64,000 bases of DNA. Source: Candidatus Jacksonbacteria bacterium RIFOXYB2_FULL_44_15 (GTDB lineage: Bacteria > Patescibacteriota > Patescibacteriia > UBA9629). Shown here one piece after another: positions 1-60,691 of this stretch. The stretch's first letter is position 1; every line of letters begins with the position of its first letter. The position numbers and the translations under genes are program-made. The stretch covers positions 17,609 to 81,608 of the forward strand of contig MHJY01000010.1 of the NCBI GenBank assembly GCA_001818235.1. The letters are read 5' to 3'. The notes beneath the pieces were generated by a model that worked only from the letters and a program-made list of their open reading frames with translations, ran no database searches and was not told where the DNA came from.

Positions 1-221
1 TGGGAGAATGGTGAAAAATCAAATCCACCGTCGCGCTGACATTATCAACGCCTACAAACTGATGATGACTGTTGCAAACTGCAAAAGTCAGCCGTCGGTG
101 GAATCTTAAATAGTAAAAAAAATGGACAGAAAAAGGATACGTGAATGTTTTGGACAAACAAACACGTTTCCTTCTCCAAAATCATCTCTAATTCGACCAG
201 TGAGTCGAAGAACTATTGCAT

Positions 222-245
222 AGATTCCTGCTTTCGCGGGAATGA
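222..245 (+). repeat. Family-A oriented motif copy (GATTCC-tgctttcgcg-GGAATGAC) pointing at the downstream structured element
   Basis: Same 5'-GATYCC...GGRATGAC-3' architecture as the copies at 2.5, 11.9, 20.8, 24.9, 51.9 and 60.5 kb. Confidence 0.5.
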
Positions 246-299
246 CAAAATCCAGTTAAAGAGACGATTTTAGAGAAGGAACATAAACATGCGCCTTCA

Positions 300-470
300 A
301 TTAATCCGCTTAAGTGGCACGCCCCGTCAGACTATCCAGTTTGACGGGGCACAAGTCAGGGAAAAAACTATAATCCCTGATCTCCCCTAAAAAGTGAGCG
401 GGGATTTTAGCACCATCCTCTCTCCGAAAATGGCGACTTTCCTGGCCGCCATCCAAGCGGATTAATCGAG
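300..470 (+). ncRNA. Candidate structured RNA of unknown class: four hairpins closed by a long terminal stem
   Basis: ttaatccgcttaagtgg (300-316) pairs with ccatccaagcggattaa (455-471). Internal hairpins are gccccgtcaga/tttgacggggc, tcaggga/tccctga, tcccc/gggga and atggcg/gccgccat. No ORF of 60 aa or more lies in 1-530, and an intrinsic terminator follows directly. I found no match to tmRNA, RNase P or SRP signature motifs. Confidence 0.25.
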
Positions 471-482
471 GGCGACACCAAT

Positions 483-511
483 AAAAAAATCCCATCATCG
501 GGATTTTTTTG
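483..511. terminator. Bidirectional intrinsic terminator (A7-atccc-atcatc-gggat-T7)
   Basis: A GC stem is flanked by an A-run and a T-run. It sits between the candidate RNA on the plus strand and the end of the hicBA operon on the minus strand. Confidence 0.5.
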
Positions 512-530
512 ATTTTGCTACGACGTAAAA

Positions 531-755
531 CTATTTTAATCGATTAAATTCAGCAACGGTTAAGCGCATGTCTTTAATGATTTCACTGAGCAACCCTTTG
601 CCAATATCTTCACCATAGTGCATCGGCACAACCGTAGTTCTGCCATCTAAATGTTCAAAAAAAGCATGGCTCCCTTTTTGATGAATCAGTTGGAAACCAA
701 GCTTAATGAGGATTTTGACCAATTTTCTGGTATTAATCGGCGATAGCGTGCTCAT
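531..755 (-). CDS. hicA: HicA-family mRNA interferase toxin (YcfA-like)
   Basis: 74 aa with a KGSH motif (HQKGSHAFFEH) and size typical of HicA. It overlaps the upstream antitoxin gene by ATGA. Confidence 0.65.
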   Translation of the reverse strand: MSTLSPINTRKLVKILIKLGFQLIHQKGSHAFFEHLDGRTTVVPMHYGEDIGKGLLSEIIKDMRLTVAEFNRLK

Positions 756-1006
756 ACACTAACGGCTAAATCTTGCCAAGCAACAAATTTGGGTTGGATT
801 AATTCCAATTTCTCGCGCTTCTTTTTGAGAACCTCCAGACATAAACTAATTGCTTCTTGCATCCGTTTGATAACGAGATCATAACTTTTGGCCTGGGTAT
901 GACAACCCGGTAAAGCTGGGCATTTGGCCACATAAATACCGTCTCCGTTTTGTTCAATTGTAATGCGAAAATTATAGGTTTTCATATGCATTGGCATTAT
1001 AAACAA
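752..1006 (-). CDS. hicB: HicB-family antitoxin (UPF0150-like)
   Basis: 84 aa. The IEQNGDGIYVAKCPALPGCHTQAKSYD stretch matches the HicB N-terminal fold motif (DGxYxAxxPxLPGC). It is translationally coupled to hicA. Confidence 0.65.
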   Translation of the reverse strand: MFIMPMHMKTYNFRITIEQNGDGIYVAKCPALPGCHTQAKSYDLVIKRMQEAISLCLEVLKKKREKLELIQPKFVAWQDLAVSV

Positions 1007-1152
1007 CCGGATTTATTGTGTCAAATAATGGAAATTCCACTCCCACCTCCCCTTTACCCGCCAAAGTTTTTGCTAAAAATTTAGGCGGGTGAAACCCCTC
1101 CTCCGGCAGGAGGGGAACTGAAAGTAAAAATGAAAATTAAAAATTTTCGTCC

Positions 1153-2364
1153 CTACCTCCCCACCACAATCATCGCTTTCCCCTCGCGCCCGGTAAAAGG
1201 CAGATCAGCGCCGGAAGGATAATCGCGAATTGACTCGAAAAAATTATCGTAATCATAGCGAAAGCCGGCGCCGCGACGGGTGCCGGAATCATTGGTAATA
1301 AATTCCTGGGTTGAATCATCATAACCGATAATCAGAATCATATGCCGCTCCGGACCTGGGGCAGTGTAATTAGGATTACGCAATATTTGGCCGTTCATCG
1401 GCGTAATAACTAAAGAGCCCTCAGCTAATTTTTTTTTGATTGCCTCAATGCTGACATCAGTTGCAACTTTGACGTTGGCTACCTGATAATAATCTTTTAG
1501 CAACTGCGCCGTATCAACTGCATTAGTATCTTGATAATAACCGAACTTCTCTTCTTGATATTTAGATAAAGCTAAAATTTCGGTTAACGCTTCCTCCAAA
1601 TTTAAGCCCTGGTTTTTAACCCAGCGCGCGGCCATCAGAATTGATGCTTCCTCACAACCATCCTGCTCGCGCGGATCAGCCCAGTTGCCAAACGGCGCTT
1701 GCGAAGTAAAAGAAACGGTAAATTTGACAGTGGCTGGGGCTGGAGATTCTGGTTTTAAAATAGTGGTCGCCTCGTCAGTCGCTAATGGCACATCCGGCGC
1801 TATCGGAAGTTTGATGTCCGGAACAAGCTCAACTAAAGGCGGCAGATATCCGCAATTAGGATCATCGCAAAAAATAAAATTATCACCGAGTTCAAGTTCG
1901 TGCGACGCCACCCAACCCGCATTAACCTCTAACGCGTAACGCGCCGGCATTCGCGGACGATACGAATTTTTCGGCTGGAGGCCTTCTGGCGCGACATCCG
2001 TAGCCAGATCAACCACCTGCCGATTATGATCAAACCAGATAATATCTAATGGGAAATTCATTTCCTTCATCCAGAAAGAGTGGTAATCAGACGCTGGAAA
2101 AATAAATAGCATGCCTTCGTTAGAAATCAAAGACTGGCGTCGCGAAAGCCCCAAAGTTCGCGCTTCGTTGGTATCAGCAAGCTCAGCGATTAAAATGGTA
2201 TTTTTGACTTTAAGCAGTTGATAAACCGGCTCTTGAGGTTGATTTTTTGATATTTTCGATGGCTCAGCTTGAGGTTGCCAGGCCAAGCAAATACCACCAA
2301 TCAATAAAAAAAACAAAATCCCACCAGCCGCCCAAATTAATTTTCGTTTGATTTGCAGAGTCAT
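1153..2364 (-). CDS. Secreted or membrane-anchored fusion protein: DUF192 domain plus C39-like (YvpB/Peptidase_C39_2-type) cysteine peptidase domain
   Basis: There is an N-terminal transmembrane/signal segment. GMLFIFPASDYHSFWMKEMNFPLDIIWFD matches the DUF192 signature. The C-terminal SQAPFGNWADPREQDGCEEAS...HMILIIGYDD...NDSG resembles C39-like papain-fold peptidases. Confidence 0.7.
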   Translation of the reverse strand: MTLQIKRKLIWAAGGILFFLLIGGICLAWQPQAEPSKISKNQPQEPVYQLLKVKNTILIAELADTNEARTLGLSRRQSLISNEGMLFIFPASDYHSFWMKEMNFPLDIIWFDHNRQVVDLATDVAPEGLQPKNSYRPRMPARYALEVNAGWVASHELELGDNFIFCDDPNCGYLPPLVELVPDIKLPIAPDVPLATDEATTILKPESPAPATVKFTVSFTSQAPFGNWADPREQDGCEEASILMAARWVKNQGLNLEEALTEILALSKYQEEKFGYYQDTNAVDTAQLLKDYYQVANVKVATDVSIEAIKKKLAEGSLVITPMNGQILRNPNYTAPGPERHMILIIGYDDSTQEFITNDSGTRRGAGFRYDYDNFFESIRDYPSGADLPFTGREGKAMIVVGR

Positions 2365-2519
2365 AACTATAATCTAGCACGCGATTGCTGATTTGTCTAA
2401 AAAATGATATGATAAAAAAGTTAAAAACTGCCAGAATAAAATACCTGCGAAGTATTCTTTTTGGTATTAATTGATTACTATTATAGATAGACTGTCCGAA
2501 AATTAACAAAGCACTAGTT

Positions 2520-2544
2520 TGTCATCCCGAGCTTGCCGAGGGAT
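2520..2544 (-). repeat. Family-A motif copy (reads GATCCCTCGGCAAGCTCGGGATGAC on the minus strand) upstream of the DUF192-C39 gene
   Basis: Reverse complement of the consensus form. It is paired head-to-head with the copy at 2577-2603 in a divergent intergenic region. Confidence 0.6.
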
Positions 2545-2576
2545 CTCTTATTTAAGGCACGAATATAGAAAGGGAT

Positions 2577-2603
2577 TCCTCGCTAACGCTCGGAATGACA
2601 GTT
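2577..2603 (+). repeat. Family-A motif copy (GATTCCTCGCTAACGCTCGGAATGAC) upstream of the adaptor gene
   Basis: Direct match to the motif seen at other loci. It is oriented toward the 2647 gene. Confidence 0.6.
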
Positions 2604-2646
2604 CTTGGACAGTTTATGACAAAGACATACTACACTTTATATTACT

Positions 2647-4602
2647 ATGCATTTCCAGCATCCACCCAGCAAAAAATTAATCATCATCACCGCAATAATC
2701 GTTATCATTTTAAGTTTGATTTTACTTAAAGTTTTTTATTTAGACCCAAATAAACCGCTGGTCTATGAATTTACGACAGTTAATAAGGTTGATTTAACCC
2801 AAGAGGTCAGTGTTACCGGCACAATTGTTCCGAAAGACTCGGCTGATCTGTCTTTCGAAATAACCGGAAAAGTAAAAGGAATTTACGCGGCTGTGGGCGA
2901 TTCGGTTACCGCTGGGCAAGTGCTCATTAAATTAGACACAACCGAACTGGACGCCAAACTCGCGCAAGCGCAGGCGGCCGTGGATACCAGCTTGGCTGAT
3001 GCCTCAAAAGCGGAAACGCAAATTCAAAGCAGTCAGCTGGGGCTCAAAGAACAACAAGCGAAAATTGACAGCGCCCGCGCCCTCCTAGCGCAATATCAAG
3101 CTGGTTTGGAAAAAGAACAAGTCAAATTGGTCGAAATTAAAAAAGGCGCGCGATCAGAACAATTACAAGTGGCCCAAACTAAAGTCATCAATGCGCAAAA
3201 TAATTTAATTGACGCGCAAACTAATCTGGCTAACGTTAAAAACAAAGCCACTAACGATCTGGTGAGCCTTTATGATGACGTTTCGGATACGATTTATGCC
3301 AGTTACACCAAAGCTGATGACGCCATTAACAAACAGATTACTGATCTCTGGAATAAAAGCGGCACCACTTATGAATTAAGTTACAGCACCTCTGACCTGC
3401 AAGCAAAATCTGACGTCGAACGGCAATACTCCGGCATTAAAGACGAAGTCGCCGCCTGGAAACAAGAAATTGATGGTCTCTCAGCAACCTCAACCAACGA
3501 AAATTGGGATCGCGCCTTGGAAAAATCGCGCAATCATTTAGTTAATGTCCGTGATTTTTTAATCCGCCAAATGGACACTCTAAACGCCGGGATTGATAAC
3601 GCATCAGCCAGTAAAACTACTTTAAATACCTACCGAACGAGCGTCGTGACCGCCCGAACGAACATTAATACCGAACTCACCGCGATTACGACCGCGCAAC
3701 AAGGAATTGCCAGCCAAAAAATTACCAATCAAAATAATATCAGTACTGCCTCTGGAGCAGTGAACACCGCGCAAAATGCGTTGGATTTGGCTAAGAATGA
3801 ACAACAACTAACCGCGATCCAGGCTTCGCCGGAAGAAATCGCCGGACAAGAAGCCGCAGTCAGGCAAGCCGCGGCCAACGTCACCAGCCAAAAAGCAATT
3901 CTCGCACAAGCGCAAGCAGGTCTGGACACTCAACGGTCGCAGATAGACCAAACCCGGGCCGGGGCAACATCTGCTCAAGCCGGAGTTAAACAGGCGCAGG
4001 CTAATTTGCAAAACGCCCAAGCCCAACTTGCCAAAGCCACAATCACCGCTCCGATACCCGGAATCATCACCAAGCAAGACACTAAAGTCGGAGAGATTGT
4101 CAGTGCTCAAAAAAACATTATCTCGCTATTAAATCCGCAGGAATACAAAATCGAAACGAACATTCCGGAAGCAGACACCGCCAAAATTAAAATTGGCGAC
4201 ACTGCGGCCGTCACCCTTGATGCCTATGGTGATGACGTGAAATTTTCCGCCCAGGTCACTAAAATTGATCCGGCCGAAACAGTCATCGAAGGCGTCTCGA
4301 CTTATAAAACCACCCTTAAGCTGAATCAAAAAGATGAGCGGATTAAATCCGGCTTAACCGCCAATGTTGATATCCTGACCGCCCAGCGTAGCCAAGTGCT
4401 CGCCATTGTGCAACGCGCAGTAATTAACAAAGACGGCAATAAATTCGTGCAGATTATTGTTATTGACCCTCAAACGAACAGGGAAACGATGAAAGAAGTT
4501 CCGGTTAAAACCGGATTGCGCGGCTCAGACGGGAATATCGAAATTACTGAAGGGTTAGCTGAAGGCGACAAAGTAATAGTTTACACCAAAGAAAATCCTT
4601 AG
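2647..4602 (+). CDS. HlyD/MacA-family periplasmic adaptor with an unusually long coiled-coil
   Basis: N-terminal transmembrane segment, about 400 aa of Q/A/L-rich heptad coiled-coil, and a C-terminal beta-barrel/lipoyl-like region (ITAPIPGIITK...). It directly precedes the ABC ATPase and FtsX permease genes. Confidence 0.75.
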   Translation: MHFQHPPSKKLIIITAIIVIILSLILLKVFYLDPNKPLVYEFTTVNKVDLTQEVSVTGTIVPKDSADLSFEITGKVKGIYAAVGDSVTAGQVLIKLDTTELDAKLAQAQAAVDTSLADASKAETQIQSSQLGLKEQQAKIDSARALLAQYQAGLEKEQVKLVEIKKGARSEQLQVAQTKVINAQNNLIDAQTNLANVKNKATNDLVSLYDDVSDTIYASYTKADDAINKQITDLWNKSGTTYELSYSTSDLQAKSDVERQYSGIKDEVAAWKQEIDGLSATSTNENWDRALEKSRNHLVNVRDFLIRQMDTLNAGIDNASASKTTLNTYRTSVVTARTNINTELTAITTAQQGIASQKITNQNNISTASGAVNTAQNALDLAKNEQQLTAIQASPEEIAGQEAAVRQAAANVTSQKAILAQAQAGLDTQRSQIDQTRAGATSAQAGVKQAQANLQNAQAQLAKATITAPIPGIITKQDTKVGEIVSAQKNIISLLNPQEYKIETNIPEADTAKIKIGDTAAVTLDAYGDDVKFSAQVTKIDPAETVIEGVSTYKTTLKLNQKDERIKSGLTANVDILTAQRSQVLAIVQRAVINKDGNKFVQIIVIDPQTNRETMKEVPVKTGLRGSDGNIEITEGLAEGDKVIVYTKENP

Positions 4603-4605
4603 GCT

Positions 4606-5289
4606 ATGCCTCTAATTAAATTAACCAAGCTCGAAAAAACTTATTACACCGGCGGCGTGGAGACGCCGGTTTTGTGTCAGGTTTCTTTTTCCATTGAGAA
4701 AGGCGAATTTGTGGCGATTATGGGCCCTTCGGGCTCCGGCAAATCAACGCTCTTGCATATCCTTGGTTTTCTCGATCGTCACACTGCCGGCGAATATCGG
4801 TTTGACGGCAAAACGATTGATGATCTTTCTCCCGACGAAATCGCCCACGTCCGCAATCAAAAAATGGGCTTTGTTTTTCAGTCTTTTAATTTATTACCGC
4901 GTACCAGTGTTCTTGATAATATTAAACTGCCACTGCTCTACTCTGATATCCCGGAAAAAAAATGGACAACGCTGGCCAGCGCCGCCGCCAAAGCCGTGGG
5001 TTTAAGCCATCGCTTGAATTTCCAGCCAGCCCAGCTTTCAGGCGGAGAAAAACAGCGCGTTGCGATTGCCCGCGCCTTAATCAACAAACCAGAGGTTATT
5101 TTTGCTGATGAGCCTACCGGCAATCTGGACACCAAAACCAGCGAGCAAATCATGCAACTTTTTCAAAACTTAAACGAGGAAAAACACACGATTGTGTTAA
5201 TCACTCACGAGCCGGATATCGCCAAACACGCCCGGCGCATTCTTTACATCAGGGACGGCCAACTCGCCAAAGACGAAAAAATTAGTTGA
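4606..5289 (+). CDS. ABC transporter ATP-binding protein (MacB/LolD-type)
   Basis: Walker [13 protein letters not shown] signature LSGGEKQR, Walker [12 protein letters not shown]. Confidence 0.9.
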
Positions 5290-6530
5290 ATATGACCATT
5301 AAGCATACCATTAAAACATCTTTTAACGGCTTAAGCGTTAATAAATCGCGGACTCTGCTGACGCTTTTGGGGATAGTTATAGGCATCACTTCCATTATTT
5401 TAGTGATGTCTGTAGGCGCCGGCGCGCAGTCGGCCATCTTGGGCCAGTTTAAAGGTTTAGGCTCGCGGACAATTTCAATTGAACCTGGCCGGATGCCGGA
5501 AGGCCCTTCGGACATGGCGGAAATTTACACTGACTCACTCAAAAAACGGGAACTCGTTGCTCTGCAGGACAAGGGTAATGTTCCCGGATTGGTAAATCTT
5601 ACGCCACTCGTGATGTTACCGGCCACGCTGGCCTATCAAAACGAAACGTACCGCGCCAACGTTATCGGCGGCTCGCCCTTGATCGCGGATATTCTTGATA
5701 TTCAGCCGGAGACCGGAAATTTTTTTACCGAGGATGACGTAAAATTACGGTCTTCGGTCACAATTATCGGTTCCAAAATTAAGGATGAACTTTTTGGCGC
5801 CAGTGACGCGATTGGCCAAAAAATTAAAATAAAAGGCCGGACTTTTCGCATAATTGGCGTAATCGCACCCAAAGGGCAAGTGATGATGCTTGAAGTCGAC
5901 AAAATGGCGCTCGTGCCTTATACCACTGCCCAACAATATCTCTTGGGAATTGATTATTTCCAAGATATCATGGCCCAAGCCGAAAGCGAAGAAGCAGCTC
6001 CGGCCGCGGTTAGAGATATCGAACAAACACTTCGAACTTTACATAACATTACTGATCCAAAAAAAGACGATTTTCACATTGTTACCCAGGCCGTGGTGGT
6101 AGAGCGGGTCGGAATTATTACTGGTATTTTGACGGTGCTTCTGGTATCAGTCGCCGCCGTATCTTTAGTCGTGGGCGGAATCGGCATCATGAACATCATG
6201 CTTGTATCGGTGACTGAACGAACCCGGGAAATTGGCCTGCGCAAGGCGCTTGGCGCGACTGACCAAGATATTTTAAGCCAATTTTTAACCGAAGCGATGA
6301 TGATGACGGTGCTCGGCGGTTTACTGGGGATCGGATTCGGAGCAGGATTTTCGCTGATTGCGGCCTCAATCTTAAATAAAGTAACTGCCTTGGCTTGGCC
6401 ATTTACTTTCCCGATCTCAGCCGCCATGCTGGGAATTGGGGTGGCGACATTTATCGGCCTGGTATTCGGGCTCTACCCGGCGCGTCTGGCATCCCAAAAA
6501 AGCCCAATAGAAGCCTTAAGATACGAATAA
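5286..6530 (+). CDS. ABC transporter permease, MacB_PCD plus FtsX family
   Basis: N-terminal transmembrane segment, a large periplasmic domain and three C-terminal transmembrane helices (FtsX-like). It overlaps the ATPase gene by 4 nt. Confidence 0.85.
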   Translation: MNMTIKHTIKTSFNGLSVNKSRTLLTLLGIVIGITSIILVMSVGAGAQSAILGQFKGLGSRTISIEPGRMPEGPSDMAEIYTDSLKKRELVALQDKGNVPGLVNLTPLVMLPATLAYQNETYRANVIGGSPLIADILDIQPETGNFFTEDDVKLRSSVTIIGSKIKDELFGASDAIGQKIKIKGRTFRIIGVIAPKGQVMMLEVDKMALVPYTTAQQYLLGIDYFQDIMAQAESEEAAPAAVRDIEQTLRTLHNITDPKKDDFHIVTQAVVVERVGIITGILTVLLVSVAAVSLVVGGIGIMNIMLVSVTERTREIGLRKALGATDQDILSQFLTEAMMMTVLGGLLGIGFGAGFSLIAASILNKVTALAWPFTFPISAAMLGIGVATFIGLVFGLYPARLASQKSPIEALRYE

Positions 6531-6590
6531 TTTTATTGACGCCCCGGCCCATTTCTGCTATGGTAATTTAAACGATAATCACTAAAATTT

Positions 6591-6740
6591 ATGTCAACAC
6601 AAAAACAACAGCATTCTCACGCCGCTACAGGCAAAGGGCGCTCACATCTTGCCCTTAAAAAAAAGACGCTGACCACCTGCCCGCACTGTAAAGAGGCAAA
6701 ATTACCTCATCATCTGTGTCCCAAGTGTCAAAAATACTAA
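6591..6740 (+). CDS. rpmF: 50S ribosomal protein L32
   Basis: 49 aa, MSTQKQQHSHAATGKGRSHLALKKKTLTTCPHCKEAKLPHHLCPKCQKY. It has a basic N-terminus and a C-x2-C...C-x2-C zinc ribbon typical of L32. It falls below the 60-aa cutoff of the ORF track. Confidence 0.7.
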   Translation: MSTQKQQHSHAATGKGRSHLALKKKTLTTCPHCKEAKLPHHLCPKCQKY

Positions 6741-6745
6741 TTAAA

Positions 6746-7198
6746 ATGTCTAATCGTCACTTATCGCGCGCTTTAACTTTGCAAAGTTTATTCATGTGGG
6801 ATTTTAATGAGGAGGATGCTTCTTACTTGGATTTTTATATTGATTACAACTTGCAAAAATTTGGTTTAAAAAATTGCGATCGCGAATTTATCGACTACTT
6901 AACTAAAAGCGTCGTTGGTAACCGCGTCAGTTTAGACGAAATGATCAACCGCTACACTAAAGAATGGCCGGTCGACCGGCTTACGCTTGTTGACCGCAAC
7001 ATCTTACGGATGGCCATTTTTGAGATGTTCAATTCAGCTGAGGTGCCGACTAAAGTCGCGTTAAACGAAGGGGTAGAACTCGCTAAAGAATATGGCGGCT
7101 CATCCTCCCAAAAATTCGTGAGCGGCGTTTTAGGAACGCTTTACGAAGAGCATTTTAAAAACAAAGCTTCTTCTGACCCATTGGATAATACTCAGTAA
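6746..7198 (+). CDS. nusB: Transcription antitermination factor NusB
   Basis: VALNEGVELAKEYGGSSSQKFVSGVLGTL matches the NusB C-terminal signature. Start trimmed to the ATG at 6746 to avoid overlap with rpmF. Confidence 0.8.
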   Translation: MSNRHLSRALTLQSLFMWDFNEEDASYLDFYIDYNLQKFGLKNCDREFIDYLTKSVVGNRVSLDEMINRYTKEWPVDRLTLVDRNILRMAIFEMFNSAEVPTKVALNEGVELAKEYGGSSSQKFVSGVLGTLYEEHFKNKASSDPLDNTQ

Positions 7199-7211
7199 AA
7201 AAACTCATCTT

Positions 7212-7910
7212 ATGGAAAAAGATTTATCGCCACTCGAAAATAAACTTCGGGTTAGATTTAATAACCATAACTTTTTAAGACAATCCCTAGTTCATAAATC
7301 CTACATCAACGAAAATCCGTCCTTTACTCTCGACCACAACGAACGACTGGAATTTTTGGGTGACGCGGTCCTAGAGCTAATCGTTACCGAATACTTGTTT
7401 AAGCATTATCCGCGAACGCCGGAAGGGGAAATGACTAATTGGCGCGCCGCGCTCGTCAACTCGACTATGCTGGCGCAACTGGCCGAAGAGTTTAATCTTT
7501 ATAAATATCTTTATCTTAGCAAAGGCGAAAAAAAAGACCAAAACCCCAAAGCAAAGCAATATATTTTAGCCAATGCTTTCGAAGCGCTGATTGGCGCCCT
7601 CTACCTGGACCAAGGGCTCGATACTGCCAAAGATTTTATTATCAAAAATATCGTTTCAAAATTAGCGAACATTCTTAAAAACAAACTGTATCTTGACCCC
7701 AAAACTCGTTTTCAAGAAAGCGCTCAAGAACAAGAAACCGTTACCCCAACCTATAAAGTCTTAAAAGAGGAAGGCCCAGATCATGCCAAAACATTCACTA
7801 TCGGCGTGTATTTAAAAGACGAATTAGTGGCTATAGGACAAGGGCTATCCAAACAAGAAGCCCAAGTCGAAGCCGCCTTAAAAGCTCTCCAAGTAAAAAA
7901 ATGGGAATAA
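7212..7910 (+). CDS. rnc: Ribonuclease III
   Basis: ERLEFLGDAVLEL catalytic signature plus a C-terminal dsRBD (TFTIGVYLKDELVAIGQGLSKQEAQ). Confidence 0.9.
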   Translation: MEKDLSPLENKLRVRFNNHNFLRQSLVHKSYINENPSFTLDHNERLEFLGDAVLELIVTEYLFKHYPRTPEGEMTNWRAALVNSTMLAQLAEEFNLYKYLYLSKGEKKDQNPKAKQYILANAFEALIGALYLDQGLDTAKDFIIKNIVSKLANILKNKLYLDPKTRFQESAQEQETVTPTYKVLKEEGPDHAKTFTIGVYLKDELVAIGQGLSKQEAQVEAALKALQVKKWE

Positions 7911-20781: not shown

Positions 20782-20805
20782 GAACAGAACCTGCCCGAAA
20801 TTTGT

Positions 20806-20830
20806 CATTCCGAGCTTGTCGAGGAATCGC
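20806..20830 (-). repeat. Family-A motif copy between the FISUMP gene stop and the Mur ligase start
   Basis: On the minus strand it reads GATTCCTCGACAAGCTCGGAATGAC, 22 nt 5' of the Mur ligase ATG. Confidence 0.6.
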
Positions 20831-24947: not shown

Positions 24948-24953
24948 AAATTG

Positions 24954-24978
24954 TCATCCCGAGCTTGTCGAGGGACCC
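24954..24978 (-). repeat. Family-A motif copy immediately upstream of alr
   Basis: On the minus strand it reads GTCCCTCGACAAGCTCGGGATGACAA and ends 4 nt before the alr ATG. Confidence 0.55.
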
Positions 24979-60472: not shown

Positions 60473-60564
60473 TGTCATTCCGAGCGGACCCCGAGCAGGG
60501 GCGAGGGGGGAGTCGAGGAATCTCTCTGGATTAAGCAAGGGATCCCTCGGCAAGCTCGGGATGA
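60473..60564. repeat. Head-to-head pair of Family-A motif copies in the divergent intergenic region
   Basis: gtcattccgagcggaccccgagcaggggcgaggggggagtcgaggaatc (60473-60521, minus-oriented) and gatccctcggcaagctcgggatgac (60537-60564, plus-oriented). The second is the exact reverse complement of 2520-2544. Confidence 0.6.
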
Positions 60565-60691
60565 CAAATTGACGTTTTTTGCTTATATACAGACTGGCCA
60601 TTTTTTACAAATCTGTCGATAATTTTGTCAACTTGATTTTATTATATACTAAAGTAAAACAGCTGTCAAACTTTGCTATTTGCCAAAAGTA

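Follow-up and report, generated by a model that had tools for sequence, protein, structure and literature searches.

A membrane-anchored DUF192–Peptidase_C39_2 fusion beside a long-adaptor MacAB-like pump in a Jacksonbacteria genome

In a 64,000-nucleotide stretch of contig MHJY01000010.1 from Candidatus Jacksonbacteria bacterium RIFOXYB2_FULL_44_15 (assembly GCA_001818235.1, positions 17,609 to 81,608; hereafter the window), a gene for a membrane-anchored protein that fuses a DUF192 domain to a Peptidase_C39_2 domain lies divergent to three genes for a MacA-class adaptor, an ATP-binding cassette (ABC) ATPase and a MacB-type permease. We give a probability of about one half to the reading that these are two separate cell-envelope units, a wall-peptide hydrolase and an independent MacAB-like pump, which are neighbours by chance in this lineage. 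The fusion itself is best read as a rare, recurrent accessory-domain variant of an exported cysteine peptidase that occurs throughout the Candidate Phyla Radiation (CPR). An earlier interpretation made from the DNA letters, here called the sequence-only reading, had instead seen a leader-cleaving C39 peptidase detached from its transporter and controlled together with the pump; all four open reading frames (ORFs) lie where it had placed them (Table 1).

Pfam profile searches assigned residues 60–162 of the fusion protein to DUF192 (PF02643, E = 5e-29) and residues 224–360 to Peptidase_C39_2 (PF13529, E = 3.6e-11, 44.2 bits against a cut-off of 24), so that the architecture first proposed, a DUF192 domain and a C39-like peptidase behind a membrane anchor, holds. 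An AlphaFold2 (AF2) model built on 26 homologues (predicted local distance difference test score, pLDDT, 85.7) consists of a helix at residues 2–28, a beta-rich domain at 48–165, a proline-rich disordered linker and a papain-like alpha/beta domain at 212–401; pLDDT drops below 50 at residues 184–204 of the linker, whose length and sequence differ between aligned homologues. The top Kyte–Doolittle 19-mer begins at residue 9 (mean 2.43), and a hydrophobic N-terminal segment is found in every aligned homologue whose N-terminus is present. Because K5, R6 and K7 stand just ahead of the hydrophobic core (residues 9–27), the positive-inside rule predicts an N-in/C-out topology with both the DUF192 and the C39_2 domain extracytoplasmic. 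The counterpart in a 94%-identical strain (P0001; locus L001, 8001–9134) was called with 377 residues, 26 fewer at the N-terminus, and would thereby lose the anchor; as the hydrophobic N-terminus is retained in every other homologue, the start codon of this gene has probably been miscalled.

Residues Q222, C237, H341, N358 and D359 are invariant in two homologue alignments of 26 and 16 sequences, with their codons verified, and the Cys/His dyad that the sequence-only reading had named in advance as its point of failure is therefore present. This conservation suggests that the domain is a cysteine peptidase capable of catalysis, in which Gln222 would be the oxyanion residue and Cys237, His341 and Asn358/Asp359 the triad. 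The modelled domain resembles the solved PF13529 member 3erv from B. anthracis (fold-match score 16.1), followed by the pseudomurein endoisopeptidase PeiR (15.1) and the phytochelatin-synthase-like Alr0975 (14.7), all of which rank above the double-glycine peptidases ComA (14.3) and LahT (13.7), with PCAT1 at 13.0. The closest structural neighbours thus include enzymes that cut isopeptide or gamma-glutamyl-type bonds; judged from the model, the fold is that of the generic papain/C39 clan and would not give the substrate. As the peptidase has no match in the PDB at the sequence level, it represents a divergent, CPR-specific PF13529 subfamily, and compared with single-domain PF13529 peptidases such as B. 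subtilis YvpB and 3erv, the fusion adds the N-terminal transmembrane (TM) anchor and the DUF192 domain.

We next compared gene neighbourhoods across CPR. Conserved C39_2 peptide patterns were the only means of fetching loci, 80 of them out of species-representative genomes and another 80 out of metagenomes (160 of more than 1,100 pattern-matched loci), to which individual contexts of fusion proteins were added; 148 loci were left after de-duplication at 90% nucleotide identity. ORFs one to three positions away on either side (near, 704 ORFs) were set against those at position four and beyond in the same loci (far, 1,209 ORFs). Next to C39_2 genes in the 148 loci there was no enrichment of MacB-type permeases (near 4, far 7; odds ratio (OR) 0.98, p = 0.62) or adaptors (near 2, far 4; OR 0.86, p = 0.71). 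M23 peptidase genes were strongly enriched (near 17, in 17 loci, far 2; OR 15, p = 2.7e-6), and many of these are EnvC-like, with a coiled-coil followed by M23. Pump and peptidase associate at background rate only. The co-occurrence with transporters expected by the sequence-only reading does take place, in loci L010, L080, L087 and L089, but not above that rate.

The most telling comparison came from locus L088, another Jacksonbacteria genome and the closest named relative, whose fusion (48% identity) is directly divergent from rpmF–nusB with no transporter genes in between. The presence of three transporter genes is the sole difference between the window and this locus, and since the L088 fusion abuts rpmF–nusB directly, the three-gene cassette has been either inserted or deleted here; the divergent layout would have arisen by gain or loss of this cassette between the fusion gene and rpmF–nusB. 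Further fusions, in L002/L003, L083, L086, L102 and L139, have no pump of this kind nearby, and that in L085 has a PadR–FtsX–ABC set 2.7 kb away that lacks an adaptor. L085 also carries a second, 192-residue C39_2 gene (6021–6599) with a weak PF03412 match, just downstream of the PadR–FtsX–ABC set and 1.4 kb upstream of the fusion, possibly forming a paralogue pair with it.

For the peptidase, processing of wall peptides is favoured over leader cleavage because of the extracytoplasmic tether, the M23 neighbours, the fusions of relatives to VanY, Peptidase_S9 and zincin-like domains, the fold neighbours, and the inclusion of Peptidase_C39_2 in a list of catalytic domains found in phage lysins that target Gram-positive hosts (PMC8223927). 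In close relatives the C39_2 domain is joined to VanY D,D-carboxypeptidase, Peptidase_S9, zincin-like, PEBP, VKOR, EamA, DUF1294 and Kazal inhibitor domains (proteins P0482, P0435, P0443, P0379, P0414, P0366, P0460 and P0055), a broad combinatorial set of exported and membrane partners, among which VKOR, EamA and DUF1294 would act as membrane anchors. Inserted through its signal-anchor with both folded domains on the outer side of the single membrane, the fusion would cut wall or envelope peptides, for example peptidoglycan stem peptides or cross-links, and would probably act alongside M23 endopeptidases, as the neighbourhoods and fusions of its relatives suggest. The DUF192 domain, carried on a flexible linker of about 45 residues, would probably serve as a substrate-binding or regulatory module, a role suggested by the occurrence of the fusion in both domain orders.

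The pairing of the two domains, which the sequence-only reading did not recognise as standard, turned out to be rare but recurrent. Of the 120 best clusters at 90% identity, 37 contain both Pfam domains; the architecture recurs in Patescibacteria, and some examples are deposited at NCBI as 'DUF192 domain-containing protein'. An exhaustive search of 1.84 billion representatives returned 624 clusters at 50% identity (E ≤ 1e-30), and only about 6 of the best 150 of these span both domains; species-representative genomes hold at least 575 loci of the C39_2 family. The fusion is thus rare, at about 1% of clusters, within a very large CPR family, and yet it recurs. Five proteins (P0025, P0029, P0048, P0064 and P0363) have the opposite order, with C39_2 preceding DUF192. 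Because the domains are fused in both orders, they would be expected to act together, and we regard this as good Rosetta-stone evidence. A stand-alone DUF192 gene beside a stand-alone C39_2 gene was found once among the 148 loci (L139, possibly a split fusion), and with this single case the link has no operonic support beyond the fusions.

DUF192 proteins (UPF0127, COG1430; structures 3pjy and 3m7a) usually stand alone, in contrast to the peptidase-fused form described here, and CPR bacteria have many stand-alone versions of 135–185 residues that carry an anchor at the N-terminus. The DUF192 domain of the fusion matches the family hidden Markov model and the fold of 3pjy/3m7a, and it presumably retains the ancestral activity, since the motifs conserved in exported stand-alone DUF192 proteins are preserved in it. 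Around three stand-alone DUF192 genes we found LysM–M23, Peptidase_S11, G5–3D and YdjM genes, contexts that, anecdotally, fit an envelope role. A YdjM-family membrane hydrolase gene adjoins DUF192 twice in unrelated contexts (L002, 9213–9755; L171, 4511–5011), beside a fusion in one and overlapping a stand-alone DUF192 gene in the other, and KsgA (RrnaAD)–UvrD genes recur near stand-alone DUF192 genes in L170 and L171.

Turning to the pump, the adaptor, ATPase and permease genes form one operon, as the first two are separated by 3 nt and the last two overlap by 4 nt. The MacA, MacB and FtsX identities of the sequence-only reading were borne out by profile matches. Pfam assigned MacB_PCD (PF12704, 1.1e-40) and FtsX (PF02687, 7.7e-20) to the permease, and the MacB model NF007826 is matched by the ATPase over model residues 3–225 (6.4e-70) and by the permease over model residues 255–646 (8.6e-69), each match below the equivalog cut-off because the halves of MacB sit in separate genes. 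With a permease that has an N-terminal TM segment, a large extracytoplasmic MacB_PCD domain and a C-terminal FtsX TM bundle, and with a LolD/MacB-like ATPase, the system has the features of a MacB-type (type VII) ABC transporter. The adaptor scores 150.8 bits against TIGR01730 (RND_mfp; cut-off 94.9), matches E. coli MacA at 1e-49, has MacA of MacAB–TolC as its top Foldseek matches, and is 100% identical to A2445_02485 of Candidatus Jacksonbacteria RIFOXYC2_FULL_44_29.

In the AF2 model of the adaptor (pLDDT 87.3), an N-terminal TM helix (residues 10–30) is accompanied by lipoyl, beta-barrel, membrane-proximal and hairpin domains, and the hairpin is an insertion of 364 residues that splits the lipoyl domain in two. 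Its arms comprise helices 99–166 and 170–230, then 323–390 and 395–462 (about 132–140 residues per arm), joined by a tip subdomain of about 90 residues with short strands and two helices, the motifs of which are conserved in the consensus of CPR homologues. The coiled-coil of about 400 residues described earlier is therefore correct in being unusually long; it is a helical insertion whose arms are each broken once, at 167–169 and 391–394, and which ends in a tip, not a single continuous coil. These breaks lie at matching heights (residues ~167–181 and ~391–405; 3145–3190 and 3817–3862) and carry a repeated motif, KKGARSEQLQVAQ and ASPEEIAGQEAAV, in which CPR homologues hardly vary at G167 and E171 and which may be a hinge or the trace of an ancient duplication of a hairpin unit.

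Among the 120 best adaptor homologues, nearly all of which come from CPR, the median length is 557 residues and most fall between 500 and 600; judged by these sequences, the long adaptor is a CPR-wide trait, adaptors of 500–630 residues are the rule there, and 651 residues is only at the upper end of its family. By comparison, E. coli MacA measures 371 residues in total and has a stem of 70 Å (7 nm) (PMC5985334), and the hairpin of about 130 residues in MacA contrasts with the 364 residues and conserved ~90-residue tip here, a difference that sets this pump apart from E. coli MacAB–TolC, YknXYZ, Spr0693–0695 and E. faecalis AS-48EFGH. If the broken arms were collinear, the adaptor tube would reach up to an estimated ~20 nm (~132 helical residues at 1.5 Å per residue), roughly three times the E. 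coli MacA stem. That the length is needed to span a thick envelope, as had been proposed, is plausible. By homology, the operon would encode a monoderm-type MacAB-like pump, in which the permease forms a dimer, the ATPase is a separate protein and the MacA-class adaptor is a hexamer, and which would expel outer-face substrates through the adaptor tube by ATP-driven mechanotransmission, as in YknXYZ or Spr0693–0695; with a tube of the estimated length it could reach across both the wall zone and the surface layer. MacAB-like systems with adaptors are known from monoderms (YknXYZ, Spr0693–0695, AS-48EFGH), where their proposed role is to remove peptides or xenobiotics from the membrane surface by way of the wall zone (PMC5985334). 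Among the literature searched we found no discussion of long CPR adaptors, and adaptors with a conserved tip could indicate by what means an exit duct is built in a monoderm that has a surface layer. To our knowledge, no outer-membrane factor is to be expected in CPR. M23 Pfam matches inside some very long adaptors were considered as a link to the wall and set aside as probable cross-matches, explicable within the barrel-sandwich 'Hybrid' clan.

Table 1 Features of the fusion–pump region and of the dispersed repeat (window coordinates).
Feature	Coordinates	Strand	Basis or remark
Gene for the 403-aa TM-anchored DUF192 + Peptidase_C39_2 fusion	1153..2364	-	ORF; PF02643, PF13529; AF2 model
N-terminal signal-anchor helix	2281..2361	-	AF2 helix 2–28; hydrophobic core 9–27; hydropathy
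DUF192 beta-rich domain (residues 48–165)	1870..2223	-	
Disordered Pro/Asp/Glu-rich linker (residues 166–211)	1732..1869	-	Low pLDDT; variable in alignment
Papain-fold Peptidase_C39_2 domain (residues 212–403)	1156..1731	-	
Catalytic codons (predicted)	Q222 1699–1701; C237 1654–1656; H341 1342–1344; N358/D359 1288–1293	-	
Divergent intergenic region with promoter-like sites both ways	2365..2646	.	Consensus scan only
Minus-strand promoter-like site	-35 at 2509 to -10 at 2480	-	Consensus scan only
Palindromic element, two inverted repeat copies	2520..2600	.	Between both putative promoters
Plus-strand promoter-like site	2616–2643	+	Consensus scan only
MacA-class adaptor, 651 aa	2647..4602	+	TIGR01730; E. 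coli MacA; Foldseek
Alpha-helical hairpin insertion of adaptor (residues 99–462)	2941..4032	+	AF2 secondary structure
Tip subdomain of adaptor hairpin (residues 231–322)	3337–3612	+	AF2 secondary structure
MacB/LolD-type ABC ATPase, 227 aa	4606..5289	+	PF00005 4.8e-34; NF007826
MacB-type permease, 414 aa, MacB_PCD + FtsX C-terminal TM	5286..6530	+	PF12704, PF02687, NF007826
rpmF (ribosomal protein L32), then nusB	6591..6740	+	49-aa ORF, CPxC...CPxC; context, not part of the system
Other repeat copies	20804–20828; 24953–24977; pair 60491/60545 (60478–60570)		

Several observations count against a wall hydrolase and a pump that are neighbours by chance. A C39_2 gene stands immediately beside the adaptor–ATPase–permease genes in five lineages (the window, L087, L010, L080 and L089), and in three of these the genes share a strand at operon-like distances: the C39_2 gene is upstream in L010 (28-bp gap), an independent DUF192–C39_2 fusion of 41% identity is upstream in L089 (89-bp gap), and the C39_2 gene is downstream in L080 (36-bp gap). 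In the unbiased sample, three adjacencies were observed where about one would be expected from cluster density, a difference that is not significant, and beyond the 90%-identity de-duplication the loci are not phylogenetically independent; the adjacency is suggestive, and independence of peptidase and pump is not proven. On the side of the wall substrate, there is no M23 gene near the fusion in the window, no wall-binding domain of a known kind (LysM, SH3 or PG_binding, for example) is recognised in the fusion, and L,D-transpeptidase (YkuD) genes, a candidate conserved neighbour in 14 loci by BLAST clustering, failed the near/far control (p = 0.26). A tblastn search of 50,697 phage records returned no relatives of the C39_2 domain and PHROGs gave only one match (0.007; function not annotated), and as the subfamily has no phage sequence relatives, the endolysin argument draws on Pfam-level literature only. 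No functional data on DUF192, YvpB or C39 in CPR were found in the literature.

The same adjacencies could indicate a facultative envelope module, in which some CPR lineages, this one among them, would use the C39_2 hydrolase together with the MacAB-like machine, a tentative alternative that we think unlikely. The hydrolase could cut a wall gap for the ~20-nm tube, like the lytic enzymes of secretion systems and flagella, or the pump could switch the hydrolase on by mechanotransmission, as FtsEX does with PcsB, CwlO and RipC. The latter would be a works-like analogy between complexes that pair a MacB-fold ABC transporter with an extracytoplasmic papain-superfamily peptidase, and FtsEX-type control of CHAP (PcsB) and NlpC/P60 (CwlO, RipC) hydrolases provides precedent (PMC6355983, PMC6705773, PMC10694151). 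Adjacency in three gene orders, three times co-directional and twice divergent, speaks for such a module, as do the co-directional L089 gene, itself a fusion in spite of its low identity, and L087, where the closest C39 relative (59% identical, a lipoprotein-type C39_2 protein without DUF192) keeps the divergent layout with the closest adaptor (49%); M23/EnvC-like coiled-coil neighbours would also fit division or wall remodelling. However, neighbourhood enrichment is nil, the excess of adjacencies is not significant, more than 95% of C39_2 genes and most fusions have no such pump nearby, and, unlike FtsEX–hydrolase modules, the fusion model lacks the coiled-coil used by FtsX-binding hydrolases, the pump has a full MacA adaptor and MacB_PCD, and the association is not conserved. 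Somewhat less likely still is a stricter form, in which the PF13529 peptidase, with or without DUF192, is the dedicated partner of the long-adaptor machine in a scattered subset of CPR, opening the wall for a tube of ~20–25 nm or acting as a pump-controlled hydrolase. If true, it would extend the FtsEX–hydrolase principle to adaptor-bearing MacAB systems and give DUF192 its first functional context, coupling the peptidase to the wall or the pump.

We hold it comparably doubtful that the fusion is a host-directed or scavenging protease, which would break down wall or surface proteins of a host cell, or peptides from outside, and so help an auxotrophic episymbiont to feed or attach, with DUF192 binding the foreign substrate. 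The subfamily is near-universal in Patescibacteria, as the counts of species-level loci and 50%-identity clusters above indicate, its S9, zincin and Kazal inhibitor fusions suggest a tool-kit for extracellular proteolysis, and CPR bacteria are reduced episymbionts (PMC10633639, PMC11665869). Against this, the protein is membrane-anchored rather than released, its association with M23 and VanY suggests substrates of the peptidoglycan type, which could equally be the cell's own wall, and the text of a Saccharibacteria transposon-sequencing (Tn-seq) paper has nothing on the DUF192 or C39_2 families.

The intergenic region between the two divergent units bears on the proposal of shared control. 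It contains head-to-head copies, at 2521–2545(+) and ~2576–2600(-), of a repeat unit GTCATYCCGAGC-N4-5-CGAGGRATC, which together fold into a strong hairpin of 81 nt (-41.5 kcal/mol, z -4.2). Both motifs are thus real, but the coordinated control drawn from them is not supported: the repeat has six copies in the window, as two head-to-head pairs and two singles, with the second pair, at ~60.5 kb, likewise in a divergent intergenic region; it is absent from 166 of 168 fetched loci, being kept as a pair in L001 and as one copy in L019, and the equivalent ~78-bp spacer of L087 lacks it. Rfam has no family on the palindromic element or the 5' regions. The palindrome is a REP/MITE-like (repetitive extragenic palindromic or miniature inverted-repeat transposable element), lineage-specific element, and since it is dispersed and unconserved in relatives, it does not argue for joint regulation; the copy pair that separates the putative promoters would simply be one occurrence of a genome-dispersed repeat. 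Translation of the repeat yields a spurious 53-residue ORF (2519–2680). The best plus-strand promoter-like site stops 3 nt short of the adaptor ATG with no Shine–Dalgarno sequence visible, and the operon may be read from a leaderless mRNA or from a true promoter elsewhere.

A role of the C39-like domain in maturing a bacteriocin or another peptide with a leader, which the adjoining MacAB-type exporter would expel under co-regulation through the shared motifs, is very improbable: the conserved Cys/His residues, the adjacency in five lineages, the roles of monoderm MacB-type pumps such as AS-48EFGH and YknXYZ in bacteriocin immunity or export (PMC5985334) and a 2023 survey that describes PF13529 as single-domain C39 relatives with extra decorations, sometimes near transporters in other phyla (PMC10318531), favour it, but the fusion protein has no PF03412 match at E ≤ 0.01 in Pfam, MacB-type pumps take no substrates from the cytoplasm (PMC5985334), enrichment is nil, L088 and five other fusion loci lack a transporter, and the motif is a dispersed repeat missing in L087. 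The PF03412 domains of peptidase-containing ABC transporters (PCAT, also AMS; ComA, PCAT1 and LahT) are cytoplasmic N-terminal parts of the exporter that need a double-glycine-leader substrate, whereas here the peptidase is a separate gene, its signal-anchor is predicted to place it outside, the adjoining ABC system is MacB-type, and there is no precursor gene in the locus. The leader peptidases of PCAT1 and ComA act in the cytoplasm. As the sequence-only reading had itself remarked, no plausible precursor-peptide ORF is found in the intergenic gaps of positions 1–7300; a loose double-glycine-leader scan matched 15 of 425 small ORFs and was too loose to discriminate. The idea of a detached leader peptidase is therefore not supported, and the label of a detached bacteriocin-type maturation protease should stay out of the annotation.

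With a wall hydrolase and an independent pump as the preferred reading, three leads seem worth keeping: the DUF192–PF13529 link, the association of PF13529 with M23 and VanY, and the long adaptors with a tip subdomain. Fusion in both orders links two large uncharacterised families, DUF192 and the CPR branch of PF13529; the latter occurs in most Patescibacteria genomes sampled, and its statistically solid M23 neighbourhood and its VanY fusion offer a testable lead to how wall peptides may be processed at the surface of ultrasmall episymbionts, a group in which the biology of the envelope has hardly been explored.

Beyond the pump, rpmF sits in the 185-bp gap after the permease and was missing from the initial ORF list. 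It overlaps a GTG-start call of nusB (6716–7198); NusB of a near-identical strain has 123 residues, and nusB probably starts later than 6716. PADLOC gave generic ABC and coiled-coil cross-matches only, so the locus does not correspond to any known defence system. A HicA/HicB toxin–antitoxin pair (531–1006, minus strand) directly follows the fusion gene on its downstream side, and L087 has a BrnT/BrnA and PIN-domain module on the equivalent side of its C39_2 gene; toxin–antitoxin cassettes flanking both loci fit a variable region.

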